Source: Microthyrium microscopicum
Lineage: Eukaryota
Assembly: GCA_010405405.1 (NCBI GenBank)
Contig: MU004231.1
Location: forward strand, 2,846,401 to 2,910,400
DNA: 64,000 bases
Direction: 5' to 3'
Made by a program: the position numbers and the translations under genes. Below are positions 575 to 44,097 of this stretch, one piece after another. Position 1 is the stretch's first letter; every line of letters starts with the position of its first letter. The notes under the pieces were generated by a model, which made no database searches, was not told where the DNA came from, and saw only the letters and a program-made list of their open reading frames with translations.

Positions 575-1239
575 TCTAATAGTAATAATTTAATTTAATT
601 AAGACTTTTAGATAATAAACCTCTTATAGGAATCTCTAGATTTATCTTATTGTTAATAATTACTTAGGATTAATATCTAGTAAAATATACTCTAAGAATA
701 TTATTCCTTAATTAGCTAGCCTTATTATAGCCTAATACTTAGTAACTATATATTAGAAAATAATTCTTAGAATTTATATATAATAATATTCCCTACTATA
801 ATATATTTTAAAAATATCTTAAATTATTTTTAATTTAAACTACTACTTTAAGGATTATTAAATATATTATAAGAATTATCTCTTTTATAATAATATTCTC
901 CTTATCTTTATTAACTTTTATTACGTTAATTATATAGCTATTAAATAAAATATAGAAACTTTTCCTTAGAAAATTCCTTAAGATAACGTTATAGAAACTT
1001 TACTATATAGATTAAAGCTAATAAGTAATAATATAAACTCTTAGCCTTAAGTTATCTTAGGAAATTAGATTAAGATCTTATCTATACTAAGAAAGTATAA
1101 AAATTTACCTTAGAATAATTTCTTAACTTTAAATTCTATTTAACTAACTTTAGTATAGAAACTTCTAAATCTTAAGACTCTTTTCTTACCTTACTAAGAT
1201 TATATTCTTTATTAAAACTATTACTTTCTCTTTATTAAA

Positions 1240-2958
1240 ATAAATAACTAGTATAATAATATTATAACCTAAACTATAAGATAAGATACTTAGTAGGTAT
1301 AATACTAAGCCTAGGTTACTAACCTAAGTTCTTAAAATAAGTAACTTACTCCTATATTATTAAATAATCTTTTTAGTATACTAAATCTTAGTCCTAACCT
1401 TATAACTTAGATTACTAATATTTAGTAATTAGGGCCCTAAGCCTTAAACTATTCTACTAGTATATATTAAGTTAATCTCTAGACTATTAACTATTCTCTT
1501 ACTAAACTATAAACTCTCTCTTAGGCTTAGAATTATATTCTTAAGGAACCTAACTACGTTCCTTAGGCCTATAACTAAACTTTCTAACGTAATAATAATA
1601 AAAATTAGTAGTCTATAAATAGGTCTATTCTTTTCTAGAAAGCGTTATTTTACTCTACTACTAATAAGTAAATTAAATAAGATTATAGCTCTAAATCTAT
1701 AGAAAATATCTAATATACTTAGTAGTAAAAAATAGTAAATTATATTACTAAATTAACCTCTTATCTTAACGTAAGTAAGTTTACCCTATATACTTAAGAT
1801 TACTAAGTAAATAAAATTAAGGCTTATACTTAGACTTAGGCTTTAACCTAAAAAACTTTATAAATAGGTATTACTTACCTAGACTTTATAGGAAAGCTAA
1901 ATAAAGAGTTAAATAAGACTATTAAATTACTTTTTTAAACTTTTAGTCCCTAAAAACTTATTAAGATAATAAGGAACGTTCCTTAAGAATAAAGATAATA
2001 TTTAACTAAGTTTAAGATATTTTTTAATAGTTTATTCTCTAAGAAACTAAGTAAGTATAATACTTAAGCTAAGAGCCTTTTTTATACCTTTAAGGCTAAT
2101 AAGAATATTCTCCTATTAAATTTTACTCTACCTAAATAGTAGAAAATTACTAAAGTTAAAGAATATCTTCTTATTAAGTAACGTCTTCTATAGGCTAACT
2201 TAGCTTAGTAATAGACTATAGAGGAGTTTAAGATACTTAAAAGTTTATCTTACTTCTTTATCTATTTTTAACCTATATTTAGTATTAAAAAAGATATACT
2301 TAAGGTTAGTATTTAGTAAAATTATATATTATAAGTTTTATTTACTAAGGAATTTATTTATTATCTTTATATTCTATAGACTTAAATAAATTCTATACTT
2401 ACTAATTATAAAATAAGTATTTAAATCTAAGGAGGCCTTAAAGAATAGGTTACTCTTAAAGCTAAGTATAGGTATAGTACTATTCCTAACCTTATAATTA
2501 ATATTTTAGCCTTTAAATAAGAAATTATTAAATATAATATAGACTCTTATAGAAATATACGTAATACTTATAATATTTATAGGCTAAAGTAGCTTAATAA
2601 AATCTCTTCTAGTTTTAAGAAAGATAAAGAGCTTACCCTAAATACTAGTTTTAAAGAATATCTTAAGAAAGTTAATAGTAAAAGCTATACTAATAATAAA
2701 CTTAAGTTAGATAATAAAAATTTAGAGTAGCTTAATATTATAAATAGCTATAGTTACTATTCTAAAGAATAACGTAATACTTAATACTCTAAGAAATTTA
2801 ACTCTAATAAGAAGTTATATTCTTTTTATAAAAAAGACTCTAAAGATAGAAAAGCTCTTATAGATAATTTTAAACTTAAGTATTAGAATTATAGTAAACT
2901 TAGTTACTACGCTATAAATTATAAAAAGCCTAACTAGTAATAATAGAATTTAAAAAAC
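1240..2958 (+). pseudogene. gag: gag relic with CCHC zinc knuckle
   Basis: 2881-2922 de-RIPs to approximately C-W-N-C-G-K-x-G-H-Y-A-x-D-C. The likely start (aaaATA from aaaATG) at 1240 is in the same frame; the start position is inferred. Confidence 0.75.
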
Positions 2959-5900
2959 TACTATTATTAAGAAATAAATAAGAATCTTCTAACTTAGAAC
3001 TAGAATACTTTACTTATCTATATAATAATTAATAAGCTTTCTTTAACTATATAAGTAAATATAGTAATACTCTTTTATATCTATCTATTTACTTATATTA
3101 TAAAAATTATTCTATTAAGACTATAGCTCTCTTAGACTTAGAAGCTAATTCTATTTATATTAGTTAAAAGATTATTAGGAAACTTAAAGCTTCTATAATA
3201 CCTATCCTAGAGAAAGAAGTTACTCTTATAAATAGCTATATAGTTATAACTTTCCTTAGGATTTACTTACCCTATTATATTAAGACTTTTTATAGCTACT
3301 TTAAGGCTTATATCCTAAATATTCTTAATCTTAATATTATTTTTAGACTTTTATAGTTCTAGTTATATAATTTATAAATTAATTAAATAATAGAGCAAAT
3401 TAAGCTTATAGAGTAATACTTAGAAGGCCTTTATATTTATAAGCTTACTATAAAATGCTAGATAGAGCCTCTTTAGAATAAGGGAAGCTACTTAAAATAA
3501 ATAGAGTAGTTTATAGCTAGCTTTCTTTATATAATCTTTTAAGTATTTTAAAATAAGGTAAAAAAAGTAAAGAATAAAGTTAAGAGCGTTCTTTAGCTAA
3601 TTTAAGGAATATAGGAATAGCCTAATATTTTCTTAATAACTAATAACTTTAATATTAATAAACTTGCTCTAGAAGATAAAAATATATAGAAACTTTTAAA
3701 TAATTACTATAAGTCCTTTTATTATACTTTTCCTAAACTTTTACTATACTCTAAGTTTAATTATAAAATCCTTATAAAAAACGTTCCTCTTTATAACTAG
3801 GCTTATTATTAGATATCTAGCCTATAACTAGAAAAGTAGAAAAAGTAGATTTAAGAACTACTTACTAAAGGACTTATTAAAGTCTTAAGAAGTCCTTAGG
3901 GTTTCCTTATCTTATTTATATTAAAGCTAAGAAGAAAATAGAAAATATATATTAACTACTATTTACTTAATATAGTTATATATAAAGATACTTATTCTTT
4001 ACTATAAATTAATAAGTATCTTAATACTATTAGTAGAGTAAGATTCTTCTTTAAGCTTAATCTTCTATTAGGCTATTAGTAAGTCTATATAGTAAAAAAA
4101 GATATTAAGAAAATAGTCTTTAATACTAAGTCTAAGAAGTATAAGTTCCTTATTATACCTTTTAGATTAATAAATATACTATTATTCTTCTAGCGTATAA
4201 TAAATACTCTTCTCTAGCTCTTTTTATTAATTTATATAGTTATTTACTTAGATAATATTATTATTTACTTAAATACTATAAAGAAATATTATAAGTATAT
4301 TACCTAGGTTCTAAAAATCCTCTAAGATAATAAGCTCTATGCTTATCCTAATAAATACGTCTTTAGGGTTAAGAAGATTAAATTCTATAGCTATAAAGTA
4401 GGAAATTAGTAAATTTAACCCTTATATAAAAAAACTACCTTAATTAAGTCCTAGCCTATATCTAAGAACGTATATAAAGTATATTAATTCCTTAATTTTA
4501 CCTTATACTATTAGTAATATATTAAGAACTTTACTAAGATTACTACCTTTATCTTTAACCTTTTAAAGGAAGCTAATCTAGATATTAAAAAAAAGAAGTA
4601 CTACTTTATTACTTAGACCTATTAATATACTATAGCTTTTAATAGAATTAAGACTCTATTAACCTTATTACCTATTTTAGTAATATATAATTTATAAAAG
4701 CTTATAAAGCTCTAAATAGATACTTTAAATTATATAATTAGTTATAAGCTAGTATAAAAAAATAACTAAAGTAAATAGTACCTAATTACTTTTAATAGCT
4801 ATAAGCTAAGTAGAGCTAAACTTAATTATTTAGTATATAAGAAAGAGCTTCTTATAGTTAAGAATATAATTAGGAGATACTAATACTACTTTCTAGAGAA
4901 GACTACTAAGATAATTATAGATTATAATAGCTTATAGTATATAAATATAATTAAGAATAATACTTAACGTATTACTTAATAAATTAAAGAGTTCTAAGAA
5001 TTTAATCTTATCTTTACGTATTATAAAGGTTCTTAAGTAATAGTTCCTAATACTTTTAGTTACTACTTAAACTTTTAAGAAAAATAGATTAATACTATTT
5101 AAGAAATAAAGCCTAAAGATAATAATAATAACTTATCTTCTAAGGCATAAGCTACTTTATTAGAACCTTTATAAGAGTAGAAAGAATAGAAAGCCTTCTA
5201 TATATAAGGCTTATAAAAAGTATTAAAAAAGAAAGATTATACTATCTCTACTAGTATATAGAAGAGGCTTTAAAAAAGCGTTCTTAATTATTTTTAAATT
5301 AACCTTAATAAAGATATTAAAAAGAAATATAAGTATTTATTCTTAGAGAAAGATTCTACTAAAGCTAAGATACTTACTAGTTTACTCTATATTTACTTCT
5401 TTTACTATTAAAACCTTATTAAGAAAGTATATAATTAGTATAAGTATTTATTATATATAGGCCTTACTAGTATTCTTAAACTAGAAGGTTAGTAGCTAGG
5501 AATAAAGAATAACTTCTAAAAATTTACTTAGTTCTATCCTATATATTAAGTTTAATAGATAAATTAAAGTAGACCTAAGTATAGGTTCTACTATTAAGTA
5601 TAAAACCTATAACTATTTAAGGCTTAAGGAATTAACTTAATTAATAAACTTTTATAGAGTCTCTTTAAGAATTAGTATATTATCTATATAATTAACTATG
5701 CTATAGAATAGCTTATTATAGAAATAGTACTAAATACTACTATTCTTATAGTTATAGAATTTATTTATAAGAAAATTATCTTAGAATATAGTTCTTCTTA
5801 ATTATTAACCTTAGATAATAAACCTTAGTTTATCTTAGACATAATTTTATCTTTATTATAATAAATAAAGACTAAGTACTACTTAATAGCCCTATATAAC

Positions 5901-7460
5901 CCCTAGTCTAATAAGAAGGTTAAGAGATTTAATAGCCTACTAGGTATATTTTTAACTAAGTTCTTAAAAGAAAAACTTATAGCTAGCTAAGATCTATACC
6001 TAGATTAAGTAGTTTATACTACTAGGATATAAGCTTATACTATATTAAGAATATCTTTCTTCTTCTTTATTTATAAGAAAGATTCTAAGGACTTTAAAAT
6101 AAGCTAGGTAAAGAAAAATAAATAAGCTAAATTAACTAGTATTATACCTCTTATCTACGTAATTATAAAAAATTACCTAAAGAAGGTTAAAACTACTAAG
6201 TAAGTCTATTATAACGCCTTATTAAAATAAGCTATAGCCTTAAACCTTATTAATAGTAATATAATTTTAAAAAAAGACTTTATTATTAAGTTCCCTATAG
6301 GTTCTTATATACTCCTTAAAAACTTAAATAAAACTAAATTCTAAGTAGCATAGTTTAGCCTTTATAAAGTCTTAAAGGCTTACTCCCTAAGAATATATAC
6401 TTTTAAGATACTTAATAAAAGAATACTTAAAAACCTTATCTATAGGAATTACCTTATATAGGTATATATATAAGAAGAAAATAAATACTATTACTAAAAC
6501 TAGCTATACCTTAAATATAAGTAATTAAGTAAAGATAACCTTAAAAGTATTCTAGATAAAGAGTATAAAAATAAAATAGATATATTTACTATAATTAAGA
6601 AAGACTAGCTTAATAGATTAAGAAACTTTTTAATAAAGTTAATTAATATTAAAAAGTCTAGTACTAGGAGATATTACTTAAGTCTATCTACTATTCCTCT
6701 TAACCTTATAAGAAAAGTTTAAAAAGCTAAAGTAAATATTTATAAATAAGAAAAGAAACATCTTATAGTAACTATTTATAACCTAAATAGTAACTTAAAG
6801 ACTCTTATAGTATTAAAATATATTCCTCTTAATCTAATTCTAGCTTTAGCGTAAAATAACTTAGAATAGATAAAGTAAATTATATAAGAAGTAGAATATT
6901 CTATAGTATTATAAAATCTAGTAAGGAAAAAAAATAATAATATTTTTATTCTCTTAAATTAAAGCTTAGTAAGGAAAGAAATCCTCTTAGCTATAATAAA
7001 TTAAGAATTAATCTTTATATTACTAGAATAATAAGAGTAAGGAGATAAATTATTAAAGCTAAGAAGCTATAATAAAATTACTATTTTAATTACTTATATA
7101 CCTATACTAGAGGTAATAAATCTATATAAATAAGTATCTAATCCTAAAGAAGACTATTAGGGTATTAACTCTTTATTACTAGATACTATAAAAGTAGAGG
7201 TTCTTCTTATAAATTATCCTAAACCTAGTCTACTATAAGAGATAAATATAACTAAAGGATTCTTATAGAATACTAATATATTTAGGCTAATTATAATACT
7301 TAGTAGTTTTATACGCCTTAGTACTAGCTTATAATATTTAGAATTAAGATAAAGATAATAAAAGGCTACTTCTAGATAAAAGATTATCTTATATATAAAT
7401 ATAAGTAAGGTACCTATAAGAAAAAAAAGAAAAATTAACCTTTTATTATCTCTTTTATAA
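2952..7460 (+). pseudogene. pol: pol relic (protease, RT, RNase H, integrase)
   Basis: De-RIPed motifs: ALLDSGA (~3126), SPWGFPILF...CIDY (~3890-3960), FSKLDLLSGYWQ (~4045), YLDD (4245), TDASD and NYPVHEKELL (RNase H, ~4715-4855), WGIDL, SDNGPQF, PQSNGKVERFN (integrase, ~5625-5935), WFGPY (~6350). End position approximate. Confidence 0.9.
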
Positions 7461-7714
7461 CTTTTCTTAATTATATTTATTTAAGAAAACTATTTATAAG
7501 AAATTACTTTTATTTATTATTAATTTAAGTAAACTATTATAAGTAATAATAACTAAAATTAAATCTTTAAATCTTCTTAGTAATCCTTAAGACTATTACT
7601 AAAGTTATTTAAATATAATAAGCTATCTCTAGATCTTTCTAGTAATCTTTAAGACTATTACTAAAAGCTTTCTTATAAAATATTTAATAGTAAGAAATAA
7701 GAAACTTAAATAAC

Positions 7715-9559
7715 CTAAATTCTTAAGCTAATCTACTACTTTTTAGTTTTAAAGTAACGTAAGCTTAATACTGCTTTTCTCTATTTCTTAAAAAATAACT
7801 AACTCTAAGAGTCTAGTTCTATTTCTTTCTCTATATAAGTAAGCTAATATACTTCTTCTTTACTAGAACTAAATATAGTTAGTAAAGCTTTTAAATAACC
7901 TAAAGATAGTGTAAATAATAAGCTATTAATAAAGTTATAAATAGAAGTAATAAGTAGTCTAGTAACTACCTATATTAATTACGTAGTATTTATACTTACC
8001 TTCTTTATTATAAATAAGTAATCTTATTTACTATTTAAGGCATAATTTATATAAGCCCTATTAAATATAAAATTACTTTTTATATTCTAGAAGACTATAT
8101 AATTATACTAAGTAATAACTTCTTTATCTAAGAGCTTAAGTATATAGTAGCGTTTATATTTATTATAACGCTAGTTAGGTTAGTAATCCTAAATATAAGC
8201 TATAGCTACTTATAGCTTATTACTACTAGATAGTAAGTTAGTTATTATTATAATAGCTAGCTTAGTCTAAGTAAGACTATACTTAATATAATACTTAAAT
8301 AATACTAGAATCTCTTAGAGGATTTTAACTCTTTAATTCTAAAGATCTTATAGAACCTAGATAAGCTTATTCTAAGTCTCTTTCTTATGTATTTATAGCT
8401 AGTAGTTTAAATAGATTAATTAACTATTTACTATAGTATAAGCTATATTATTAAGCAAATGCTTATAAGTCTACTTATTAAGCTTCTTTAAGAAAGCTAA
8501 ATAATAACCTAAACTAAGCTCTACCTTAATTTAAGGCTTAAGTAAAGTCTTATATATACTACTTTGCTTCTTTATAGGCTAATATAATAGTATCTTTACC
8601 TTTTCCTTACTTAAAGACTTAACGTACTCTAGTTTATTCTTAAAAATATTTAAGAAGCTAGTCTTACTAACTATATACTTATATACTTATAAAATATTAT
8701 AAGTTTACTTTAGCTTAAGTATTATATAATAGTAATAGCCTTAGCTATGCTCTTAGTTAATAACCTAATATAAGGTTATTTTAAAGTATACTAAGCTATT
8801 TTAAATATACTAGAATATATCTTTTACTACTTAAACCTAGGAATATATTATATCTTACTCTATATATATTTATATAGAATTAAGTAGTATAGTATTTAAG
8901 AAGTTATAGTCTAAACTAAAGGTATTAGTAATATAAGTACTAAATATTATAAATAGCTTAATCTTATTTTAATCTAGGAGACTTATTTCCTAAAGCTATT
9001 AAAGCGTTACCTATATTAGAGTATTCTTTTTAATAAAACTTACTTTTCGTTTAGGTATCTCTTAAGTAGCTTACTTATAAGCTAATTTCTACTAGTAAAA
9101 GAACTTACTCTTTAGAATTAAAGGATATTATCTAAATATAGGTAATTATTTATAAGATTATCTCGTCTTAGAATTAACGTTATAGTAGCTTATAGAAGCT
9201 TACTAGTAAGCCTTCTTAAGAAAAGAATTTAGATAGCTAATACTCTATTAATAACTAAATCTAGCTAGAGAAGGTAAAAAGTAGTTATTATTATTCCTTA
9301 TGCTTAAAAATCTTAATATATTATCTTATTAGCTATAAGCTTTAGTTAGAGAAGATAAACGTATAGGTATATTTATAAATAATTATAAACGTTCCTTAAA
9401 ATAAGGTTAAGTAACTAGACTTAGAGACTAAGTAATAAGACTTAGAGCTTATTATAAAGATTTAGCTTAATTATACTAAGCTTAAAAAACTTAAGAGTAA
9501 GTACTATGCTTTTTAGACGTCTTTAAAGATAATATAGTTAGCTTAGTATAAGGAGCTAT
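7715..9559 (-). pseudogene. RIP-mutated intronless antisense accessory ORF A (~615 codons), unknown function
   Basis: Minus strand begins agaATA GCT CCT (ATG GCT CCT, MAP...). One frame carries RIP-resistant codons (GAG, AAG, GAC, GCT, CGT, ATC, TTC) throughout, and in-frame TAA/TAG can be explained as CAA/CAG/TGG/CGA after RIP. The stop position is uncertain (7715 or 7706). Confidence 0.7.
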
Positions 9560-10201
9560 TCTAAAGAGCTCTTATAATTAAGAGCTTAAAAAGAATTAAG
9601 GATTAAAGAAAAGAAATATATAGAGCTACTTATACTTAATAATATTAAAAGTATAAAAGGAAATCTACTTTTACTAGCTTAAAGTATTATAGAAGTATAA
9701 TAAAAAAGAAGAAAAGAAGATAATAAATTATAAAGCTTTATAAATATAGGATTAAGCCTTTATCTTATATTTACTTAGACTAGTAATTACTATCTAATTC
9801 TTTATTACTACCTATATATTACTTTTTATAAACTTTACTCTTTAAGGCCTTAAAGTATAGGTTATATATATTCTTTACTAAATTAAGTAGTCTTAGTATA
9901 CCTATATAAATCTCTTATAATTTCTTAATTTACTATTACTAATAGCCCTTACGTAAATAAACTTTCTTAAAAGAATTAAGAACTATAAACGCTTAAGTAT
10001 TATTTATAATAGTTTAACCTAAATCTTAAGAAAAATCTTAAGAAGATAATTCTTTAGAAATTACTTTATAGCATAGCTAGGGTAATAGTCCTAAATCTTA
10101 AATAAAGATTCCTTATTAGTTATTATAATATTTTTTTTATTTTACTTATTTATTAAAGTTACGACTATAGGATTTATAATCTTAAGAGAGTTTATACTAG
10201 T

Positions 10202-10210
10202 AAAAGAAGA
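10202..10210 (+). other. Polypurine tract of copy 1
   Basis: aaaagaaga abuts the 3' LTR; copy 2 has aaggaagaa (41673-41681); most-G consensus AAGGGAGGA. Confidence 0.75.
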
Positions 10211-10362
10211 TATTATAATAAAGAATATACTAAGAGATTAGATAATTATAAGACCTAATTAGGGATAACATAATCCCTTAATTAGCGTGTCCTAAAAACT
10301 ATATTAGGCCCTTAGACTCCCGTAGTAATTAACCACGCTTTATTTCTCATATTCTTGCAATA
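10211..10362 (+). repeat. 3' LTR of copy 1
   Basis: Direct repeat of 423-574, followed by TSD GGCAT. Confidence 0.95.
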
Positions 10363-11396
10363 GGCATTCACCCCGGCACATCACTTCTCTAATACAACTC
10401 AACTTCATCCTGCTTAGCATGGTATTAAGTGCTTGTCACCTACTCTAGTATACCTGTTATGAATACCAGCGGATAGGTGATTGGAAGCAGCGATTCAATT
10501 GCTGCAAATTCATGATGTTGGGATCCGAAGTATGCGGCCCATCTAATGTGAAGTTCAGCGAGCCTGAAATTACGATGCGTCTCGTGGCCATTGGCATTGT
10601 CATTCGAGGAGCAAGTGCCTGGTACGTTACCAGTCACGACTCTGAGGACATCAAGAGCATGGAACATGTAGTTGCCATCATCTCAAGACAACTGGGGGTT
10701 TGGCCTCAAGAGCTAAGGGCTAGGATGGATGTATCAAAGGACTTTTGTAAGTGTAAGTTGTTCGATTGAGCATTCAACAAGATATCATTACAAGTGAGTA
10801 CTGTACAGCCATCAATCATCGCATCTCAGAAAAAATATCAAGATAATCATCAACAGTCCACCATTCAAGAATGAGAAGCAGAAACACGACTGACGGTACA
10901 GACAAGACTCCAAAACAGACTTTCTAATCTTTCCATTTTGGCTAGGAGGACTATACATGAAGATCTAACCTGATCTGTGGTTGTTGACCCTCTCCAATAT
11001 CCAAAATGCAATCTGCAAGCAGCTGAACGACAGAGACCTGTATTGCGCCAACAGGTCCTTCATGACAGTTGTGGGTTCAGATGACTTGAAGTCTCTCAAC
11101 TCAGACAATATACAATAAACAAGAAGCTGCTCCAAGCATGACTGCTGTCTCCAAAGGGGTATCCCTGTGACTAAACGCGACAAGCCTTCCACACCAGGCT
11201 CGAAGAATAAAAAGCAACACCAGGTTCGCGGCGAACAGGACTGGAGTCCCTTTCGCCCCTAAATATGTACCTGCATGGTAAAGAAGACTCATGTCCATCC
11301 GGGGATATGCCAGAAAAAAATAAAGTTACAAGAAGATGTGACCGCTAAGTGATGACAGGAAAGAATGCTCGTTCTGATTTGAAAACCGGTCCACGC

Positions 11397-20255: not shown

Positions 20256-21792
20256 ATGCGTAACGTCAAAAGCGTTCCAATATACGACATTGATTTCACT
20301 CTCCGACGCACGTTTCGCAAGAAAAATTTCAGGTGAGCAACACAAGCATACCGTGTAATTCAATCTAACTATTAGAAGAACGCTACAAAGAGAAGTCATT
20401 CTAGCAGCGCTAAGTGGCGAAGATGTATACCTACAAGCTGCCACATCCTTTGGAAAGAGCATATGCTTCCAGCTTCCCGCGGTCGTGAACTTGGGCGTAA
20501 CTATTGTCGTCTCTCCGCTGCTCTCCTTAATGATGAACCAAATCAACGCGCTTCGAGAAAACAACGTACCGGTAGAGACGATAAATGGAACAACTCAGTA
20601 TCATGAGCGGAAGAGAATTATTGACGATGCCCAATGCGGCCATCCGCGAGTCAAAATGCTTTACGTTACTCCAGAGTTGTGCAGTCGAGACTGGTTTCGA
20701 GACTTGCTTCGATCAATTCACGCCCACGGTCAACTTGCCAGATTCGTTGTCGATGAGGCACATTGCGTCAGCCAATGGGGCCACGATTTTCGTAAAGATT
20801 TTCTTGAGCTGTCATTCTTCAGACGAGAGTTCCCCGACATTCCAATCATGTGCGCTACAGCAACGGCGACAGCGGTTGTGCGAAAAGACATCATCAATAT
20901 CATGGGGCTGGATGAGAAACTTAAATTCTTTGCAATGCCCACTTCTCGGCCGAACCTTCATTATGAAGTTCGATTCAAATCGGATGAATTCGATGAGCGC
21001 TACACAGACTTTCTACAGTGGATACGCCAAATCTACGCTAGACGGCAAGGAACTGCCAGATTAGAAGAGCTTCAAAAGACTAAAGAGCGAGTGGAAGGTG
21101 TGAGTGGTATAATATACGTTATCAGCCGTGAGGGCTGCGAGAACTTGGCCGAACGACTTTGCAACGACGGGATCGGAGCAAAGGTCTATCACGCCAAACT
21201 CAGCAATGACGCGAAGAAGGATCATTTGGCGGGATGGATCTCCAATCGGCCTGGCTACGATATCATCGTTGCTACAACTGCCTTTGGCATGGGCATCGAC
21301 AAGGAAGATGTTCGATTCGTCGTGCATTGGCAGCTACCGAAATCATTTGAAGGCTTCTATCAAGAAGCCGGCCGAGCAGGTCGAGATGGGAAGGCGAGTA
21401 TATGCATACTCTACTATGCCCTGGAAGATCGGATATGGCTTGAGAGAATGATCGAAATGCAAGCGGCGCAGAATCAGAAAAAGAAAAGCAGTACAGCTAG
21501 AACGGAGAACATTGAAGGACGGCGGAAAAGTTTTAATCAACTCGTCAAATACTGTGAAAAAACGACCAAGTGTCGGCATCAGATCATAGCGGACTACTTT
21601 GAAGACAAGCAGAAACCCGTTTGTGATTGGGCTTGTGACTGGCACAAAGATCCATCAAAGCTTCAAAAGGCCAAGAAAAGATTCGATGCGACAGGCCTCA
21701 CTCCTTCCATGTCCCAAGCTATTGATAACCATCTAATGGATCATCGCCAGACCATGGCAAATACAGATCTGGAGTGGGTTGCTCAGGATTGA
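20256..21792 (+). CDS. RecQ-family DNA helicase (short form: helicase core plus Zn/RQC)
   Basis: Exon 1 ..DIDFTLRRTFRKKNFR, intron, then AATSFGKS, LYVTPE, VDEAHCVSQWGHDFR, ATATA, VATTAFGMGIDK, YQEAGRAGRDG, C..CRH..CDWACD. Confidence 0.93.
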
Positions 21793-30476: not shown

Positions 30477-32230
30477 AAGTGAAGACTTGGTACGAATTAA
30501 GTCTGGAATTTTGAGGCAGTCGGGGAAGAGTGAAACACAAACTCTTGATATCTAGAATGAAGCCAAAGTGAGATTCAGATCTGCGCTATATGTGAGATAG
30601 TGCTAGTGAATGGAATGACCCGCCTTCAAATCGAGATGGCGCCTCTACTTCGATAGCGGGCGCCCACAAGGGAACTAATGAATAACAGATCACTTCGAAC
30701 GTGCCTACATGTCACAAAAAAACATGACAAGAGGAAACAAGAAGAAAGAAATCAGACCCCAGCTGGGTTTCTACCTTCTCAATTTGGTACCTTTGTAAGA
30801 TCCTCATTTCTCTCTCCACCAAGAAGCATCACCAAGAGTGATGCAAGCTTGGTTTACCCTTGGACAGCTCAGCCACCCGAGCAGTTGCTTGTTACTGTAT
30901 AAATGTCCCTGATAAAACAGTTTTGGTGGTCCGATTATGGACTTGATAAATCATTGATTGGGCAACAGAGATCCTGGAGGAGATATCGGACAGCGTTCTA
31001 CTAACCTGTTCAATTGGAACGCTTGAGCCCGATCCACGCCTATCTAATCCAGCCCGGCTATCGAGCGATTTGAATCTACATAGTGATGAGACCTGGCAGT
31101 TCATAGGCTGACTTGCAGCAGCAGTCACAATCCATGTCGGAGCTTGGCTGAGCCGAAGCAGACCGCTCAGTCGTGAGTTCTACCTGCTGGTGGAACAACT
31201 ATCGTCGTTGTTGGCTCCTGCATAGTGAATAGTGTGCAACCAACGTCTGTTCGGTCTGCGGGAGTGCAGATCTCCGATTTTTAGCTTAATCATTCGCAGC
31301 TTTGAACTTAGAGGAAAGCAGGACTACGACTAACAGTACTGAGCGCTCCACATAATGCTCTTTTGCTTCGACACCCGATCTAGTCTTGTGACTTGGTACC
31401 TCTAATCATTAATGATACGATCAGTCACAGATGGACGATTGACCTGTTTTACCTGTATAGTTCGTGAAATAGCCATCGCTTACTTGCTTGGAGTTTTGGA
31501 CAATCTCAAAATGAGAAGCTCCAATGGTTTAGGACTCTTCGACCATAAACAGAGCAGGACGTTTCCTGTTCATGAAGGTACCGAGCAGATTACACTGTGA
31601 GTCTGGCACCTCTATGAAGTGCACGTCACCCTTGCGAGTGTTTTCTGATTCCATGGAAGCCTCGTTGTTGGACGTCATCTGGGTTGACCAACCATTCGAC
31701 GCTTCTATGGCGAATTAGCGAAAGAATGGTGGCACCGCGTTCGCGCTAAAACTTACCGTACTTTGGGATTTCGGCCCTTCCCATGGCTACTTGAAGTTCG
31801 GCCTGCGTTACAAACTGATAATTCGAGTTTACAGTAAAACCTCCTCAATTCCAGGTGGTGACTACTAGGCGGTAGAGATATACATTTTGATGAATTGTAC
31901 GAGCAGATGCACCACGACGATCTCCCAATCCGAGAAAGTCTCTTTGGCATCACAGACACTTCCATTATCCTTTACATATCGTAGAACCAATCATCGGGCG
32001 CGCGATGGGGTTGGTGATGTTCAGCCTTGAGGTTCTGGAGAAAGAGCTTGGAGCCATTTCAGGACGTAGCCGACGGCGTGGCACGCTTAGCGTCCTGCGG
32101 CAAGAACCGCCTAGCTACTAATTCAACCAATCTATTGGTTACTATGCAGAACTAGTGATGCTTTTCCCAGATTTCCTGGAAATTTCACGCGAGAAACCTG
32201 CTACGTGGGAACGGTAAGATCGCTCGCCAT

Positions 32231-32382
32231 TGTTGTGATGAAGAACATGCCAAGGGATTAGATAATCATAGGACCTAATTAGGGATGACATAATCTCCTA
32301 ATTAGCGTGTCCTAAAAACTATATTAGGCCCTTAAATTCTTGTAGTAATTAACCACGCTTTATTTCTTATATTCTTATAATA
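32231..32382 (+). repeat. 5' LTR of copy 2
   Basis: 152-bp repeat beginning TGTTG. Confidence 0.95.
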
Positions 32383-33046
32383 TTTAGTAGTAATAATTTA
32401 ATTTAATTAGGACCTCTAGATAACGAACCTCTTATAAGAATTCCTAGATTTATCTTATTATTAATAATTACTTAGGATTAATATTTAGTAAGATATACTC
32501 TAAGAATACTATCTTCTAATTAGCTAGCCTTATTATAGCTTAATACCTAGTAACTATATATTAGAAAATAATTCTTAGGATTTATATATAATAATATTCT
32601 TTACTATAATATATCCTAAAAATATTTTAAATTATCTTTAATTTAAACTACTACTTTAAGAATTATTAAATATATTATAAGAATTATTTCTCTTATAATA
32701 ATACTCTCTTTATCCTTACTAACCTTTGCTACGTTAATTATATAGCTATTAGACGAAATATAGGAACTTCTTCTTAGAAAATTCCTTAAGATAATGTTAT
32801 AGGAACTTCACTATATAAATTAAAGCTAATAAGTAATAACGTAGACTCTTAGCCTTAAGTTATTTTAGGAAATTAGATTAAGATCTTATCTATACTAAGG
32901 AAGTATAAAAATCTACCTTAGAATAATTTCCTAATTCTAGATTTTGTCTAATTAACTTTAGTATAGAAACTTCTAGACCTTAAGACTTTTCTTCTATCTT
33001 ACTAAGATTATACTCTTTATTAAAACTATTACCTCTTTTTACTAAA

Positions 33047-36000
33047 ATAAATAACTAGTATAATAATATTATAGCCTAAGCTATAGAATAAAATACCTAG
33101 TAAGTATAATACTAAGCCTAAGTTACTAACTTAGGTTTCTAAGATAAGTAACTTACTTCTATATTACTAAATAACCTTTCTAACGTACTAAATCTTAGTC
33201 TTAACCTTATAACTTAGGTTACTAATATTTAGTAATTAGGGCCTTAAGCCCTAAACTATTTTACTAATATATATTAAGTTAATCTCTAGACTATTAACTA
33301 TTCTTCTACTAAATTATAAACTTCCTTTTAAGCTTAGAACTATACTCCTAGGGAACCTAACTATATTTCCTAGGCCTATAATTAAACTTTCTAACGTAAT
33401 AATAATAAAAATTAGTAGTTTGTAAATAGGCCTATTCCTTTTTAGAAAGCGTTATTTTACTCTACTACTAATAGGTAAAGTAAATAAGATTATAGCCTTA
33501 AACCTATAGAGGACGTCTAATATATTTAGTAATAAGAAATAGTAAATTATATTACTAAATTAACTTCTTACCTTAATATAAGTAAGTTTACTTTACGTAC
33601 TTAAGATTATTAAGTAAATAAAATTAAGGCTTATGCCTAGACTTAGGCTTTAACCTAAGAAACTTTATAAATAGGTATTACTTACCTAAACCTTATAGGA
33701 AAGCTAAGTAAGGAGTTAGATAAGACTATTAAATTACTCTTCTAAACTTTTAGTCCTTAAAAACTTATTAAGATAATAAGGGATGTTCCTTAGGAATAGA
33801 GATAATATTTAACTAAGTTTAAGATGCTTCTTAATAGTTTATTCTCTAGGAAACTAAGTAAGTATAATGCCTAGGCTAAGAGCCTCCTTTATATCTTTAA
33901 GGCTAGTAAGGATATTCTTCTATTAGATTCTACCTTATCTAAGTAGTAGAAAATTACTAAGGTTAAAGAATATCTTCCTATTAAGTAATATTTCTTATAA
34001 GCTAACTTAGCCTAGTAATAGGCTATAGAGAAGTTTAAGATACTTAAAAGTTTATCTTACTTTTTTACCTACTTTTAACCTATATTTAGTATTAAAAAAG
34101 ATATGCTTAAAGTTAATATTTAGTAGAATTATATATTATAGGTTTTATTTACTAAGGAATTTATCTATTATCTTTATATCTTATAGACTTAAATAAATCT
34201 TATACTTACTAATTATAAAATAAGTATCTAAATCTAAGGAGGCCTTAAAGAATAAGTTACTCTTAAAGCTAAGTATAGACATAGTGCTATTCTTAATCCT
34301 ATAGTTAATATTTTAGCCTTTAAATAAGAGATTATTAAATATAATATAGACTTTTATAGGAATACGTATAATACTTATAATGCTTATAAGTTAGGGTAGC
34401 TTAATAAAATCTTTTTTAATTTTAAAAAAGATAAAGAGCCTACCCTAGATACTAGTTTTAAAGAATATCTTAAGGAAGTTAATAATAAAAGCTATACTAA
34501 TAATAAGCTTAAGTTAAATAATAAAAATTTAGGGTAGCTTAATGCTATAAATAGTTATAATTACTATTCTAGAGAATAATATAATACTCTACGCTCTAAG
34601 AAATTTAACTCTAATAAAAAGTTATAGCCTTTTTATAAAAAGGACTCTAAAAGTAGGAAAGCTTCTATAGATAATTTTAAACTTAAGTACTAGAATTATA
34701 GTAAACTTAGCTACTACGCTATAGATTATAAAAAGCTTAATTAATAATAATAGGGTTTAAAAAACTATTATTACTAAGAGATAAATAGGAATCTTCTAGC
34801 TTAGAACTAGAATACCTTATTTATCTATATAGTAATTAATAAGCTTTCCTTAACTATATAAGTAGATATAGTAATACTCTCTTATATCTATCTATTTACT
34901 TATATTATAAAAATTATTCTATTAAGATTATAGCTCTCTTAGACTTAGGAGCTAACTCTATTTACGTTAGTTAAAAGATTATTAAGAAACTTAAAGCTCT
35001 TATAATACCTATCCTAGAGAAAAAAGTTATTCTTATAAATATCTATATAATTATAACTTTCTTTAGAATTTACTTACTTTATTATATTAGGACCTTTTAT
35101 AGTTACTTTAAGGCTTATATCTTAAATATTCTTAATCTTAATATTATTTTTAGACTCTTATAGTTCTAGTTATATAATCCCTAGATTAATTAGATAATAG
35201 AGTAAATTAAGCTTATAAAATAACGCTTAGGGGGCCTATATACTTATAAGCTTATTATAAGACGCTAAGTAGAGCCTCTCTAGAATAAGAAGAGCTACTT
35301 AGAATAAATAGAGTAGTTTATAGCTAGCTTTCTTTATATAATTTTTTAAGTACTTTAGAATAGAGTAAAAAGAGTAGAAGATAAAGTTAAGAATATTCTT
35401 TAGCTAATTTATAAAATATAAGAATAGCTTAATATCTTCTTAATAACTAATGACCTTAATATTAATAAACTTACTTTAGAAGATAAAAGTATATAGAAAC
35501 TTTTAAATAATTACTATAAATTCTTTTGTTATACCCTTCTTAAATTCTTCTTATATTCTAAGTTTAATTATAAAATCCTTATAAAGAATGCTCCTCTTTA
35601 TAACTAGGCTTATTATTAGATATTTAGCCTATAACTAAAAGAGTAAAAAAAGTAGATTTAAGAACTACTTACTAAAGGACTTATTAAAGTCTTAAGAAGT
35701 CCTTAGAGTTTCCTTATCCTATTTATACTAAAGCTAAGAGAAAAATAAAGAATATATATTAATTACTATCTACTTAATATAGTTACGCATAAAGATACTT
35801 ATTTTTTACTATAAATTAATAAGTATCTTAATACTATTAGTAGAGTAAGATTCTTCTCTAAGCTTAATCTTCTATTAGGCTATTAGTAAGTCTATATAGT
35901 AGAAAAAGATATTAAGAAAATAGCCTTTAATACTAAGTCTAAGAAGTATAAGTTCCTTATTATATTTTTTAAATTAATAAATACGCTATTATTCTTCTAG

Positions 36001-39000
36001 CGTATAATAAATATACTTCTCTAGCTTTTCCTATTAACCTACGTAGTTATTTACTTAGATAATATTATTATTTACTTAAATACTATAGAGAAATATTATA
36101 AGTATATTACTTAGGTTCTAAAGATCTTCTAAGATAATAAGCTCTATACTTATCCTAATAAATACGTCTTTAGGATTAAGAAGATTAAATTCTATAGCTA
36201 TAAAGTAAAAGGTTAGTAAATCTAACCTTTATATAAAAAGACTACCTTAATTAAGTCCTAGTCTATACCTAAGAACGTATATAAAGTACGTTAATTTCTT
36301 AGTCTTACCTTATACTATTAGTAATATATTAAGAACTTTACTAAGATTGCTACTCTTATCTTTAATCTCTTAAAAGAGGCTAACCTAAATATTAAGAAAA
36401 AGAAGCACTACCCTATTACTTAAACCTATTAATATACTATAGCCTTTAATAGAATTAAGACTCTATTAACTTTATTATCTATCTTAGTAGTATATAACTT
36501 ATAAAAGCTTATAAAGCTCTAAATAGATACTTTAGATTATATAATTAATTATAAGCTAGTATAAAAAGATAACTAGGATAAATAGTACTTAGTTACTTTT
36601 AATAGCTATAAGCTAAGTAAAGCTAAACTTAACTATCTAGTATATAAAAAAAAGCTTCTTATAGTTAAGAATATAATTAAGAGATACTAATACTACTTCT
36701 TAGAGAAGACTACTAAAGTAATTATAAATTATAATAGCTTATAGTATATAAATATAATTAAGAATAATACCTAACGTATTACTTAATAGATTAAAGAATT
36801 CTAAGAATTTAATCTTATCTTTACGTATTATAAGGATTTCTAAGTAGTAGTTTCTAATACTCTTAATCGCTACTTAAACTTTTAAAAAGAATAGATTAAT
36901 ACTATTTAGGAAATAGAGCTTAAAGATAATAATAATAACTTATCTTTTAAGGTATAAGCTACCTTATTAGAACTCTTATAAGAGTAAAAAGAATAAAAAG
37001 CCTTTTATATATAAAGCTTATAAGAAGCGTTAGAAAAGAAAGATTATATTATCCTTATTAGCATATAGAAGAGGCTCTAAAAAAGCATTCTTAATTATTT
37101 TTAGATTAATCCTAATAGAGATATTAGAAAAAAACGTAGATATCTATTCTTAAAGAAAGATTTTACTAAAGCTAAGATATTTACTAATTTACTCTATATT
37201 TATCTCCTTTATTACTAAGACCTTATTAAGAAAGTATATAATTAGTATAGATACTTATTATATATAAGCTTTACTAGTATTTTTAAACTAAAAGGTTAGT
37301 AGCTAGAAATAGAGGACAACTTTTAGAAATTTACCTAGTTTTATTCTATATATTAAGTTTAATAAATAGATTAAAGTAGGCCTAAGTATAGGTCCTACTA
37401 TTAAGTACGAAACTTATAGCTATTTAAGGCTTAGGAAATTAACCTAATTAGTAAACTTCTATAGAGTCTCTTTAGGAACTAGTATATTATTTATATAATT
37501 AACTATACTATAGAATAGCCTATTATAAAAGTAGTACTAAATACTACTACTCTTATAGTTATAGAATTTATTTATAGAAAAATTATTTTAGAATATAGTC
37601 CTTTTTAATTATTAACCTTAGATAATAGACTTTAGTTTATCTTAGACGTAATTTTATTCTTATTATAATAGATAAAGATTAAGCACTACTTAATAGCTCT
37701 ATATAACCTCTAGTCTAATAAGAAGATTAAGAAATTTAATAGCCTACTAGGTATATTTCTAACTAAGTTCCTAGAAGGAAAACTTATAGCTAGCTAGGAT
37801 CTATATTTAGATTAAGTAGTTTATATTACTAGGGTATAAGCTTATACTATATTAAGAATATCTTCCTTTTTCTTTATCTATAGAAGAGATTCTAAGGACT
37901 TTAAAATAGGCTAAGTAAAAAAAAATAAATAAGCTAAATTAACTAGTACTATACCTCTTATCTACGTAATTACTAAAAATTACCTAGAGAAGATTAGAAC
38001 TACTAAGTAAGTCTATTATAATACTTTATTAAAATAAGCTATAGCTTTAAACTTTATTAATAGTAATATAATTTTAAAAAAGGACTCTATTATTAAGTTC
38101 TCTATAAGTTCTTATATACTTCTTAAAAACTTAAATAAAACTAAGTTCTAGGTAGTATAGTTTAGCCTTTATAAAGTCTTAAAGGCCTACTCTTTAGGAA
38201 TATACGCTTTTAAGATACTTAATAAAAGAGTACTTAGAAACTTTATCTATAAGAATTGCCTTATATAGGTATATATATAAAAAGAAAATAAATACTATTA
38301 CTAGAATTAGCTATATTTTAAACATAAGTAACTAAGTAAGAATAACCTTAAAGGCGTTCTAGACGAAGAGTATAAAAGTAAAATAAATATATCTACTATA
38401 ACTAAGAAAGACTAGCTTAATAGATTAAGAAACCTTTTAGTAGAGTTAATTAATATTAAGAGGTCTAGTACTAGGAGATATTACCTAGGTCTACCTACTA
38501 TTCTTCTTAACCTTATAAGAAAAGTTTAAGAAGCTAAAGTAGGTATTTATAAATAAGAAAAAAAACGCTTTATAGTAACTATCTATAACTTAAGTAATAA
38601 CTTAGAAACTCTTATAGCGTTAGAATATATTCCTCTTAGCCTAATTCTAGCTTTAGCATAAAATAATCTAGAGTAGATAGAGTAAATTATATAAAAGGTA
38701 GAATATTCTATAATATTATAAAATCTAGTAAGGAAGAAGAATAATAATATTTTTACTCTTTTAAATTAAAGCTTAGTAAAGGAGGAAATCTTCCTAGCTA
38801 TAATAGAATAAGAATTAATCTTTATATTATTAGAATAATAAAAGTAAAGAGATAAATTATTAAGGCTAAGGAGCTATAATAGGATTACTACCTTAATTAC
38901 CTATATATCTATATTAAAAGTAATAAATCTATATAAATAAGTATCTAATCCTAGAGAGGACTATTAAGGCATTAACTCTTTATTACTAAATACTATAAAA

Positions 39001-39267
39001 GTAGAGGTTCTTCCTATAGATTATCCTAAACCTAGTCTACTATAAGAGATAGATATAACTAAAGGATTCTTATAGAATACTAATATATTTAGGCTAACTA
39101 TAACGCTTAATAGTTTTATATATCTTAGTACTAGCCTATAATATTTAAGATTAGAATAAAGATAGTAAAAGGCTACTCCTAAATAAGAGATTATTCTACG
39201 TATAGATATAGGTAAGGTACCTATAAAAAAGAAAAGAAAAATTAACCTTTTATTATCTCTTTTATAA
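33047..39267 (+). pseudogene. gag-pol relic of copy 2
   Basis: Same motifs as copy 1: zinc knuckle at 34688, ALLDSGA ~34933, YLDD ~36052, integrase ~37430-37740. Confidence 0.9.
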
Positions 39268-39528
39268 TCTTTCCTAATTATATTTATTTAAAAAATTGTT
39301 TATAAGAAATTACTTTTATTTTATTATTAATTTAAGTAAACTATTATAAGCTATAATAAATAAGCTAAATCCTTAGATCTCTCTAGTAATCCCTAGAACT
39401 ATTACTAAGGATATTTAAATATAATAAGTTATCTTTAGATTTCTCTAGTAATCTCTAGGACTATTACTAAAGTTTACCCTTTAATAAATTAATAAGATAA
39501 GACTAAGAAATATAGGAATATTAAAGAA

Positions 39529-41037
39529 CTATTACTATACGTCTTACTATAATCTTATAGAGTCTTATCTTTTTAAGGCCTATGCTTATTCCTTCTTCTT
39601 ATTCTTTAAGAGCTTTACCTAGGCTACTAATTTTATAGTAATTTTAGCTATTCTAAAGTACTCCTTATTAATTAGTAACTTAGGAATGCTAGGAGAAGTA
39701 GATAATTAAATAATAGTAGAATTTAAACCTTTTTTTTAACTCTATAGTAAGATATAGTCTTTATAGAATAAATAAGTTTAAAGTTTACTATTAAACATAT
39801 AATTAGTATAAGCGTTATTTAGGAAAGGAGCTTTATTTCTTTTATATATACTAATAATATATTTATTATAAGTATAGATTTATAATAAGTTCTAATAACG
39901 CGTATAAGCCTTTTCTTACTTTACTTTTATAGTTATATATATTATAGAAGTCTTTAAATAAGAAGATAATAATAGAATATTCTTAGTTAAGAGTAAAGTA
40001 CTTAGATACTAATAGATCTCTTACTAAGGTATAAGCGTTAAGATATTAGTAACCTCTACTAGAATACTATTATTCTTCTAATAATATTTTAAAAGCTAGA
40101 AGAGTAATTCTTAAGTTACTTTCTCTTTTAAGAGTTTAACGTCCTTAAAGGTAAGATACTAGTTAGAGTTTAAGAACTTAACCTATTTTTTTTAATAATC
40201 TATACTTTTTTTAGTAGTTAGTCTTATTATATTTATATAACTACGCGTAGTAGATAGCTTTTTTAGAATTACTATTAAGCTTACTTTACGTTTATACTTT
40301 TAGAGTCTTACTTACTTTAACTCTTACTTATATTTATTACGTATAGTTTTAGTAGTTTTAATATACTTATAAGTATTTTCTAGGCTCTTATTAATAAAGA
40401 CTAGTTAATCTTTATAACCTTTTACTTCTTACTTTATAAACTCTTAGTACTTTATTAAGTTTACTAACTCCTTTTTAGTAACCTTATACTTATAAGTTAA
40501 AACTATTATAGAAGTTTTAATATAGAAATTGCGTACTTATAATAGGTTAAAGGGTATAGGAGTTCTATACTTAGCCTTATAATTACTTTCTAATAAGTCT
40601 AGACTTCTTATTATACGCGCTAATTCCTAAATAAGAGTATTATTAATAGAAATTATTTAATAAGATATTTTTAGCATTATAAAAAGTACTAAAAACTTAT
40701 AGTAAGAATAAAAGACGTTATTAGAAGTATTACTAAAGAGATCTTCCTTCTTCTTATTAGCTTCTAGGATTTAGTTAATTAGCTAAAAACTTATAGAATA
40801 GGAATAATACTTAATTAAGTTATAAACTAATTCTTTAAGAGTTTCTTTACGACTTAGTAAAAGGGATAGAACCTTAGCCTTAACCTTTTTATATAAATAG
40901 GTTATATAAGGTAAGAGCTATTTTTGCTTATTTTCCTTTAAAGCGTTAATAATTTTTTAATAAGCGTTTAAATAAGAAGAGTTTCCTTTATTAGACTTTT
41001 AAGAGCTACCCTTTTTTAGAGTATCTAGAGGAGCTAT
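39529..41037 (-). pseudogene. RIP-mutated intronless antisense accessory ORF B (~503 codons), unknown function
   Basis: Minus strand aaaATA GCT CCT CTA GAT ACT CTA AAA AAG GGT AGC TCT (about MAPPDTPKKGSS). One frame keeps RIP-resistant codons (e.g. AAG AAG AAG GAA GAT, GAG ATC, GCG CGT) over 1.5 kb. Stop position approximate. Confidence 0.72.
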
Positions 41038-41681
41038 TTTAAAAGCCTTAAGAAGTATAAATAGTAAGTTTTAAGTAGGGAGAATATATAAAGTTACTTA
41101 TATTTAATAATATTAGAAGTATAAGAGGGAATCTACTTCTACTAGCTTAAAAATATTATAGAAGTATAATAAAAAAGAAAAAGAGAAGATAATAAATTAT
41201 AAAGCTTTATAGATATAGGATTAGGCTCCTATCCCTATATTTACTTAGATTAGTAATTACTACCTAGTTCTTTATTACTACCTATACGTTACTTTTTATA
41301 AATTTTATCTTTTAAGGCCTTAATATATAAGTTATATATATCTCTTACTAGATTAAGTAGCCTTAGTATATCTATATAAACTTCTTATAATTCCTTAATA
41401 TATTATTACTAATAGCTCTTATATAGATAAATCTTCCTAAAAGGATTAAGGAGCTATAAACGTCTAAGTATTATTTATAATAATTTAACTAAGATCTTAA
41501 GGAAAGTTCTTAGGGAATAATATCTTAAAGGTTACTATCTAGTATAACTAAAGCAATAAACCTAATTCCTAGGTAGAGGTTCCTTATTAGTTATTATAAT
41601 ATTCTTTTTATTTTATTTATTTATTAAAGCTATAGTTATAGGATTTATAATCTTAGGAAAGTTTACGCTAGTAAGGAAGAA

Positions 41682-41833
41682 TATTATAATAAAGAATATG
41701 CTAAGGGATTAGATAATTATAGGACCTAATTAGGGATAATATAATCCTCTAATTAGCGTGTCCTAAAAACTATATTAGGCCCTTGGACTCCCGTAGTAAT
41801 TAACCACGCTTTATTTCTCATATTCTTGCAACA
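41682..41833 (+). repeat. 3' LTR of copy 2
   Basis: Ends TTGCAACA; preceded by the PPT and followed by the TSD. Confidence 0.95.
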
Positions 41834-44097
41834 GCCATGTGGCCGCAACGTGGAGCTTCTTCGTCCCATCTGCATTGTCTAAACCATCACCTTTCACGCG
41901 AAGTAATCGACACATTACTCCATAATGCCCAAATCTAATAACTTTTATCTAGCATTGCCCCGTCACCGCATAAAGGACGGACCTATCATGTTTACTCCGT
42001 ATGGTAACCCGACATCGGTGCGTGGTCGTGGTCGTGGTCGCTGCTTGTCAGACGCCCATCCTCTAGATTTATGTTTCTTTTAAGCGCGGATTGTCTTGAA
42101 TTGTGATTGTGCATAAAGCCTCAAAGCGATACAGCAATGATGGGGGCTGAGCGGTTGAAGTTGCCCTTCTAAAATATTTCCCCTTCGTCCATACCGGCAA
42201 CAAAAATGCCACACCAACATCATTAACTGGATAGGCATTTCCTCCTGAGCGATCAGAACATTCTGCAGTAGGCCGAGAATTCATGGCATCAACGGCTCAA
42301 CCTCCGCCCATCTGCAACTTGTAAGAACTGCATTTTAGTTGCTGCATCACCTAGTGTTTGTACAAAAAGCATGTCTATATTACCATCTTACATTCACTGC
42401 TGGATAGAAAATGCGTGAGTCATGATTGGCAATCTCTTAAGCAGGACTGCCCTTTTTCATCCCTTGCCTTATAGTATTCTGTATTCATGAGCAACGTATC
42501 TTACTGATACCTTGCGGGGAAGCAAAGAGTAAAAGCAAGACAACTTTCGACACTTCAAGATATTTGATTGTTCTGCACGCATTTGAAGCTCTGACCGTAC
42601 TCGGTGTGCAGGTTGGTGTTGATTTTAATGCGGACGCTGCGTCCATGCTCACAGCCCAGCAAAAAGAAATAACATGTCGCACAAGAACATTTTAAGACAG
42701 CCAAAAACAGTCCAACTCGTTGGATCTTGCAATGTTTTGTTATATCTTCCTTACTTAGCAGGTTTTCTGGCTGTAGAGTATTGTCAGGAAGTGAACAATT
42801 TCAAGGTTTTCGATCTCAGCACTTTGTTGTCATCAACTATGCTGATTATCAAAACGAGATTTCTACCTCTCTCATGATGCATTCATTCCTGTATTTCTTT
42901 CAGCTTCCCGACCATTTGGTTGACCACATGGCTCACACGTGTGCGTGCGCCAACATTAGGGACTCAGCTTGTATTCGCTTATGCAGCGCCCAGCCGCCCC
43001 GTGACACCAATACTAATGCATGTCTCAACAAATTCACGAAGTCGGTTTTGCCTTTTTATCATGCCCACAATATACCTGCACAATATACATGGTATCCTTT
43101 GTCTGTCAAGTTTCCCGGACATCTTTACCTACTGGCATATCTGATTGTTTCCTCCTTACCCCTTTGGTAATGCATACGATGATAGCTTAAGGTAGTTGAA
43201 TCGATCTCGTAGGTGCCAGCGTAGCTCACTGTGTCTCTCTATCATTTGCTTCTTTTTCTGGTGCAACCACATGGTTCGCCAGGGTTTAACTTAGGCTTTC
43301 ATTAGCTTCTTTGCTTGTTTATTTGATCAAAAATCTTCCCATAAGGAAACATCCTTTAGGATGTCTTTGAATTTGCTCGAAGCGAGCATACAGGTAGTAC
43401 TTGGCTGTCGGTTGTTATACCAGTGTACCCTCCAACTTAATCATCATGTTCTTCGAAAAGATGTTCTGACTGGCCAGCTGTCATCGAAGGCAACTACAAA
43501 TACGCTAAATTGATTCTAGGCTGAATGATATCAATGGAAACGGTGAACAGGAGGGAGCGAATTTGTCTGGAAGGCACACTTTCACTGTAGTTGGTGACCT
43601 CTTATCCTCCTCATTTACTGGCCTCTTTATGTGTCAACATGTGCCTGGAGTAGTTAAGAGCAGGTAGAACGCACTCCTGTCTCTATGTGTGCCTAGGTCA
43701 TGCTGAATCTGCGAAGTCAGACAATAGCTATGGCCGTAGTGATAGGGTCTGTGATAAGCGTCTATTTACTTTTTGTACCTTCAAGAACTCGAAACGCTCA
43801 CGTGCTTTCGATAAACAGGGTAGAAATATAATGTAGAGTATGTAATGTAAGGCGTTGAGGGGAGAAGTTAAGTCTCAGCCTGATTGCAGCCTTGTCTGTG
43901 GCGCATTTGTGGCTTAGAGCGGCTTTGCCCCGCGTCTAGCCGATCTCGGAATCATGAGCGAGGCATTTGTCAGGTTCACTAGTGCTCTCAACCACTTCGA
44001 CAACTTTTTGATTGCTAGAACTTCCTCGGAGACATATCACATACCTAATCCTCCCATACCTACTCTCATCCTGCCTTCCCTCCCCGAGTACGCCAGA

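Follow-up and report, generated by a model that had tools for sequence, protein, structure and literature searches.

A candidate antisense accessory gene, destroyed by repeat-induced point mutation, between pol and the 3' LTR of a Ty3/Gypsy-like retrotransposon of Microthyrium microscopicum

A three-periodic, purine-first pattern and a deficit of stop codons mark one minus-strand reading frame along the whole of an insert that lies between pol and the 3' LTR of a Ty3/Gypsy-like retrotransposon of the fungus Microthyrium microscopicum. This frame, termed here ORF B (positions 39529 to 41037; 503 codons), is dead as a gene in the copy at hand, whose DNA is saturated with repeat-induced point mutation (RIP). 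The chances are, in our judgement, about even that ORF B is what RIP has left of a genuine antisense accessory ORF (an aORF-3R) belonging to one subfamily of a Dothideomycete Ty3/Gypsy-like element. The window within which the analysis was done is a stretch of 64,000 nucleotides (contig MU004231.1 of assembly GCA_010405405.1, positions 2,846,401 to 2,910,400 of the forward strand), and all positions are counted from its first letter.

Antisense ORFs located between pol and the 3' LTR form an established class, into which ORF B fits by position and orientation. In those parts of the published accounts that were available, they are described from plants, namely from maize Grande (gene23), rice RIRE2, Silene Retand and Phaseolus PvRetro13 (PMC7264820), and from the fungal element Boty (PMC7264820, PMC8365987), whose antisense gene, in Botrytis cinerea and Sclerotinia sclerotiorum, is named brtn (PMC7264820, PMC8365987, PMC4227169). 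The same partial account gives their function as unknown in every system, credits Grande's gene with a promoter of its own upstream, and reports a proposal that the protein or the antisense RNA plays a regulatory role (PMC7264820).

The element that carries ORF B (termed here copy 2) occupies positions 32231 to 41833 and is bounded by 152-bp LTRs: a 5' LTR beginning with TG at 32231-32382, recognized by blastn and as a repeat family, and a 3' LTR ending with CA at 41682-41833, recognized by blastn, where likeness to genomic contigs likewise ends at 41833. Both are on the plus strand and are flanked by a perfect 5-bp target site duplication (TSD), GCCAT, at 32226-32230 and 41834-41838. Another copy of the same element (copy 1; 423-10362, plus strand) likewise has 152-bp LTRs and a perfect 5-bp TSD, in this case GGCAT (418-422 and 10363-10367). 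In both copies a purine run stands immediately 5' of the 3' LTR; that of copy 2 (41671-41681) adjoins the LTR and is read as the polypurine tract (PPT). Within pol, Pfam identifies an RNase H domain (RT_RNaseH_2; 36439-36720, plus strand; E=1.9e-11), at residues 1404-1497 if the frame is read from 32230, and a remnant of the reverse transcriptase (RVT_1; 35809-36204, plus strand), at residues 104-235 if translated from 35500, which scores below the Pfam cut-off (E=3.6e-4; 20.7 bits versus 29.6); in both translations stops were read as X. The LTRs, the TSDs, the PPT and the plus-strand orientation of both RT_RNaseH_2 and the sub-threshold RVT_1 match thus identify a complete, TSD-flanked, plus-strand Ty3/Gypsy-like LTR retrotransposon of 9.6-9.9 kb. 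No other expected pol or gag domain is detectable: searches for the integrase, protease, chromodomain and gag of the element returned no Pfam family at E<=10. No tRNA can be assigned to a primer-binding site after the 5' LTR, where the sequence is heavily RIP-altered. Near 38600 the best-scoring sense frame switches from +1 to +0, which suggests that a frameshift has occurred or that the end of pol holds a second ORF.

Two blocks of the window (about 1000-10400 and about 32300-41800) have a GC content of 0.20-0.23, as against 0.43-0.57 elsewhere. Where the two copies align, 7243 columns show 743 transitions, 14 transversions and four one-base gaps; the scarcity of transversions implies that, before mutation, these aligned parts were about 99.8% identical. 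The insert that contains ORF B has 323 TA and 170 AT dinucleotides, only 2 CA and 4 TG, and 71 AC and 74 GT, and each of the 371 stop codons in its six frames is TAA or TAG, with TGA absent. RIP is saturated in both copies. Host genes border the RIP-saturated blocks directly and the GC boundaries are sharp. Between the two copies lies a RecQ-family helicase with an intact open frame (20359-21792), whose product over 20359-21789 matches a protein of Microthyrium microscopicum at 100% identity--the next-best matches, from other Dothideomycetes, being at most 63% identical--and the identical database protein carries the Pfam domains PF00270, PF16124 and PF00271.

ORF B had first been noticed in a sequence-only reading, whose coordinates, strand and quoted residues agree with the minus-strand translation of 39529-41037. 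The frame had been described there as uninterrupted, which it is not: it contains 39 stops in 503 codons (23 TAA and 16 TAG, the last three codons all being stops). The raw translation reads IAPLDTLKKGSS*KSNKGN...ALKENKQK*...KVKAKVLSL...RKETLKELV...ILEANKKKEDLF, where * marks a stop, and it turns into the string that was quoted if every stop is replaced by Q and if I1, L4 and L7 are replaced by M, P and P, respectively. A listing of ORFs contains none of at least 40 aa between 32292 and 41752. Nor does the strong start context claimed for the frame exist as such, inasmuch as the first codon is ATA rather than ATG and a former ATG has to be assumed. That the frame opens after de-RIP is no evidence for a gene, because every stop in the six frames is TAA or TAG, so that reading these as CAA, CAG or TGG would open any frame. 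More generally, being open after de-RIP is a property of every frame in RIP-saturated DNA and should not be scored. The absence of introns had been taken to fit passage through an RNA intermediate, an argument that fails for an antisense gene: the genomic RNA of a retroelement is the complement of the mRNA of such an ORF, and hence passage through that RNA does not remove the introns of an antisense gene. What stands of the antisense ORF reading is the slot, the strand and a RIP-invariant coding signature; what does not is the raw frame, with its stops and without an ATG. A mycovirus connection was also raised, to which no pointer was found.

The position of ORF B is well defined. Blastn aligns positions 420-7665 of copy 1 with 32228-39471 of copy 2 (89.5% identity) and 9615-10367 with 41083-41838 (85.9%), so that the copies are homologous up to 7665/39471 and again from 9615/41083 on. 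Between these boundaries copy 2 has an insert of 1611 bp (39472-41082) and copy 1 one of 1949 bp (7666-9614), and the slot that they occupy lies, as judged by blastn, Pfam and the position of the PPT, between pol and the 3' LTR, with ORF B antisense to pol. At its left edge are two tandem 62-bp units (39369-39470; in copy 1, 7560-7665), which belong to one repeat family (D3) with 90% identity; each unit holds a short internal inverted repeat, and the units are placed exactly where the copies cease to align. Some contigs from other copies diverge at 39363, suggesting that the number of units varies. On the other side of the slot, a region common to both copies (41083-41681; 9615-10214 in copy 1; 85.9% identity by blastn, with 98 transitions and 10 transversions) extends to the 3' LTR; it would lie upstream of ORF B, and its purine track shows no period-3 signal.

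No likeness between the inserts themselves is detectable at the DNA level. Blastn finds no match between them at word size 7, and alignments in purine/pyrimidine (RY) space or tolerant of transitions, run with strict parameters, stay at the null level; a laxer first RY alignment was uninformative (observed 151/142, null 162+-15). Nevertheless, slot 1 has, on the same strand and in the same position, an antisense frame (ORF A; 7721-9559, minus strand) of 613 codons, as the sequence-only reading had noted, and the raw start of both frames is ATA GCT CCT, although they are otherwise unalignable. These codons are contained in an island of 15 bases (41029-41043, minus strand), 14 of which match copy 1 (9551-9565), an agreement reached in 2.8% of 1000 dinucleotide shuffles of 150-base neighbourhoods (p=0.028). 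At the protein level, the best BLASTP HSP between ORF A and ORF B has E=0.25, and a Smith-Waterman comparison gives z=3.75, the top of 36 frame pairs; the RIP-invariant RY-codon alignment, which lacked a positive control, gives z=0.18 and rank 13 of 36.

Contigs from DNA runs of the same organism, compared with 38900-41900 at a likeness of at least 80%, reveal further copies. One run (X1) contributed 754 contig pieces, and in both X1 and a second run (X2) all 30 bins of the region are covered; variable places among contigs comprise 649 transitions versus 16 transversions. Because all bins are covered and because nearly all of the variation consists of transitions, the slot-2 insert is a repeated, RIPped part of the family and not a private insertion. 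Four contigs diverge at 39471 into an insert of the copy-1 type; since contigs of both kinds thus cross this boundary, both insert types are multi-copy. Indels within the ORF are few; those listed comprise, in single contigs, a +1 and a -1 at 39837-39841 that compensate each other and, in one contig, a skip of 109 nt. Among the 21 ORF variants listed (40 of 728 variable places) none reverts a stop; at position 40926 (codon 38), copy 2 keeps CAA where most contigs have TAA, that is, the route from Q to stop is seen in action. The LTR (41682-41838) has a summed contig depth about 10 times that of the internal region in the DNA runs, a depth that is not a copy number. A presumed-RNA run (X6) yielded contigs only on 41687-41838, within which long contigs (up to 5833 nt) end in or cross LTR sequence with 0-3 differences. 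Together these observations suggest that many solo or little-mutated LTRs lie in or beside transcribed regions. A run labelled with another organism (X5) contains pieces of the element at low depth (about 2.5-5) over 38900-41900, one of which matches the window without a difference for 184 nt.

A first alternative to an antisense accessory gene accepts that the coding signal is real and sees in the insert a reversed passenger, that is, a fragment of a host gene or of another transposon (a transposase, gag or pol) captured by the ancestor of the subfamily. Capture or replacement predicts just what is seen here, namely unalignable inserts within elements that are otherwise about 99.8% identical, and homology searches are in no position to object. 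With stops entered as X, ORF B has no match at E<=1e-3 in a phmmer search of 1.84 billion representative proteins and no chain at E<=10 among PDB sequences; Pfam returns no family at E<=10 for ORF B, for ORF A or for the extended frame, and none for ORF B at E<=0.1 in a search with all six frames of the whole element. These blanks say little, however, because a matched control, the equally RIPped integrase region of the element cut to 503 aa, is blank as well (no Pfam family at E<=10 and no match among 7235 candidates, these being proteins of 276-881 aa only, to the exclusion of long polyproteins), as are the protease, chromodomain and gag. With the integrase control undetectable, homology does not discriminate against a known transposase, gag or pol in reverse orientation, and the arguments against one are structural only. 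Neither insert carries at its edges (39472/41082 and 7666/9614) a TSD of its own or terminal repeats, whether inverted or direct; the matches there are short and of low complexity. ORF B bears no similarity to the element's own gag-pol when compared in 'RIP space' (z<=1.2), and no RY 28-mer of either insert recurs elsewhere in the window. Moreover, the same conserved ATA-GCT-CCT island starts both insert types, both types are multi-copy, and the putative ORF takes up 1509 of the 1611 bases of the insert, which is not expected of a random fragment. A reversed passenger is accordingly regarded as unlikely.

A second alternative dispenses with coding altogether: the interval from pol to the PPT would be a non-coding, fast-evolving spacer, and its frame bias would be due to composition and chance. 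The blank protein, Pfam and PDB searches are in keeping with this, as is the ease with which de-RIP can open any frame. The tests that bear upon it are stop counts, an RY-codon model, period-3 purine power and purine content by codon position, all chosen as measures that transitions cannot alter. Over the insert, the ORF B frame has 41 stops in 537 codons versus 54-74 in the other five frames, and a six-frame minimum as low as 41 occurs in 2 of 1000 dinucleotide shuffles; its stop density (7.6%) compares with 8.8% in the true frame of pol. A caveat on stop counts taken alone is that an antisense frame over the 3' part of pol, at 38300-38950 and at the corresponding 6500-7100 of copy 1, is also stop-poor (6-11 per 200 codons). 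In these stretches the sense frame has 15-19 stops per 200 codons, and the antisense RY coding score is about zero.

The RY-codon model reduces codons to their eight purine/pyrimidine classes and was trained on pol, where it picked the true frame in both cross-validation halves. Under this model the ORF B frame scores +12.4 bits and is the sole frame with a positive score, the other five ranging from -7.1 to -28.5; none of 1000 dinucleotide shuffles reaches its score, and it ranks top in each of eight windows of 450 nt. Period-3 purine power, for which no training is needed, is 3.99 for the insert (p=0.018), as compared with 6.1-6.7 for windows of pol, 10.5 for gag and 0.55-2.05 for the non-coding leader and pre-LTR region. 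Purine content at the three codon positions of ORF B (0.583/0.519/0.497) resembles that of the pol stretch 35230-39129 (0.58/0.513/0.475), and the first-position value is 0.57-0.61 in six of seven long host open frames. The signal of ORF B is weaker than that of pol. In a 600-nt scan it fades, ORF B scoring about zero or below in windows from 40700 on (the first ~100 codons). A spacer could draw upon two other results: the period-3 value is modest and, for the C-terminal half of ORF B alone, not significant (p=0.25); and slot 1 lacks a significant frame signal, ORF A reaching p=0.125 and 0.387 against shuffles and p=0.12 for period-3. (In slot 1 the ORF A frame scores weakly positive in the left part, at about 7550-8600, which is the C-terminal half, and not so at 8750-9559, the putative N-terminus.) Against a spacer, three partly related statistics converge upon the frame of ORF B, which leads in every 450-nt window; the codon-position purine pattern agrees both with pol and with host ORFs; and the insert contains no tandem repeat able to mimic periodicity. 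A non-coding spacer is therefore considered slightly less likely again than a captured fragment.

The support for ORF B is stronger as to phase than as to strand, a purine-first, pyrimidine-last pattern being nearly self-complementary; and the difference RRR-minus-YYY has the 'wrong' sign in four of the seven long host open frames. The minus strand is nonetheless favoured, both by stops (41 versus 62) and by first-position purine (0.583 versus 0.503) as well as by AT skew. The insert might instead have been coding on the plus strand, in the frame whose codons line up with those of ORF B, and have formed a sense ORF3 or extended pol at its C-terminus. This would suit the near self-complementarity and the fact that the aligned frame is in phase with pol (32230 and 39472 both being 1 mod 3), and is nevertheless quite improbable, given 62 stops in its 537 codons (11.5%), an RY score of -7.1 versus +12.4, a first-position purine content below the 0.56-0.61 found in eight of nine reference sense frames, and an AT skew that is negative on the plus strand at 40001-41000.

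If ORF B is indeed what remains of an antisense accessory gene, then before RIP it would have run as a single ORF for about 500 codons from the common ATA(ATG)-GCT-CCT island. Its promoter, antisense and internal to the element, may have been situated in the 600-bp common region beside the 3' LTR, and its transcript may have extended to about the 62-bp repeats. If Grande gene23, Boty brtn and the antisense genes of retroviruses are a guide, the replication or the silencing of the element could have been modulated by the protein or else by the antisense RNA.

Of the known systems, Boty offers a likeness in kind: it too is a Gypsy-type element of ascomycetes in which an additional ORF, opposite in orientation to gag-pol, occupies the interval from pol to the 3' LTR. 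ORF B differs from brtn in being a RIP-wrecked remnant, and the two are compared by description, the phmmer search with ORF B being without matches. Furthermore, two unalignable versions of the slot occur here in near-identical elements, a feature that does not appear in the portions of the Boty descriptions covered. The plant aORF-3R, as presented in the available part of the source, resemble ORF B in existing as many copies per family without clear database homologues (PMC7264820), and Retand, as a title cited there (Kejnovsky et al. 2006) indicates, has a tandem repeat in the interval between pol and the 3' LTR (PMC7264820), where the present element has a doublet of 62-bp units at the edge of the slot. 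They differ in coming from another kingdom and in that the same source documents, for some of them, transcription, nuclear localisation and conservation across copies (PMC7264820). HTLV HBZ and other retroviral antisense genes, again according to the portion of that account available, resemble ORF B in lying on the minus strand of a reverse-transcribing element, towards its 3' end; their antisense promoter, however, is in the 3' LTR (PMC7264820), while the putative start of ORF B is about 645 bp internal to the 3' LTR, and no homology was found.

A broader notion takes the interval between pol and the 3' LTR to be a modular antisense gene slot, in which two unrelated ORFs of about 500-600 codons would be accessory genes swapped as cassettes between retroelements. 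Both ORFs would be anchored at the conserved island (ATG-GCT-CCT before RIP) and at the downstream 62-bp repeats, with swapping presumably occurring by template switching. This notion is held to be decidedly doubtful, though not to the degree of a plus-strand gene. What two alternative inserts in near-identical elements do hint at is that the slot evolves by replacement.

For RIP-saturated DNA in general, this analysis illustrates that transition-invariant RY statistics can still recover both frame and strand. The practical value of ORF B itself is limited, because all copies seen are RIP-inactivated and recovery of the protein would require all genomic copies or a less-mutated relative. If the antisense gene is real, however, then the Dothideomycetes, beside the Leotiomycete lineage of Boty, would be a second fungal lineage with an antisense gene in a Gypsy-type retrotransposon.
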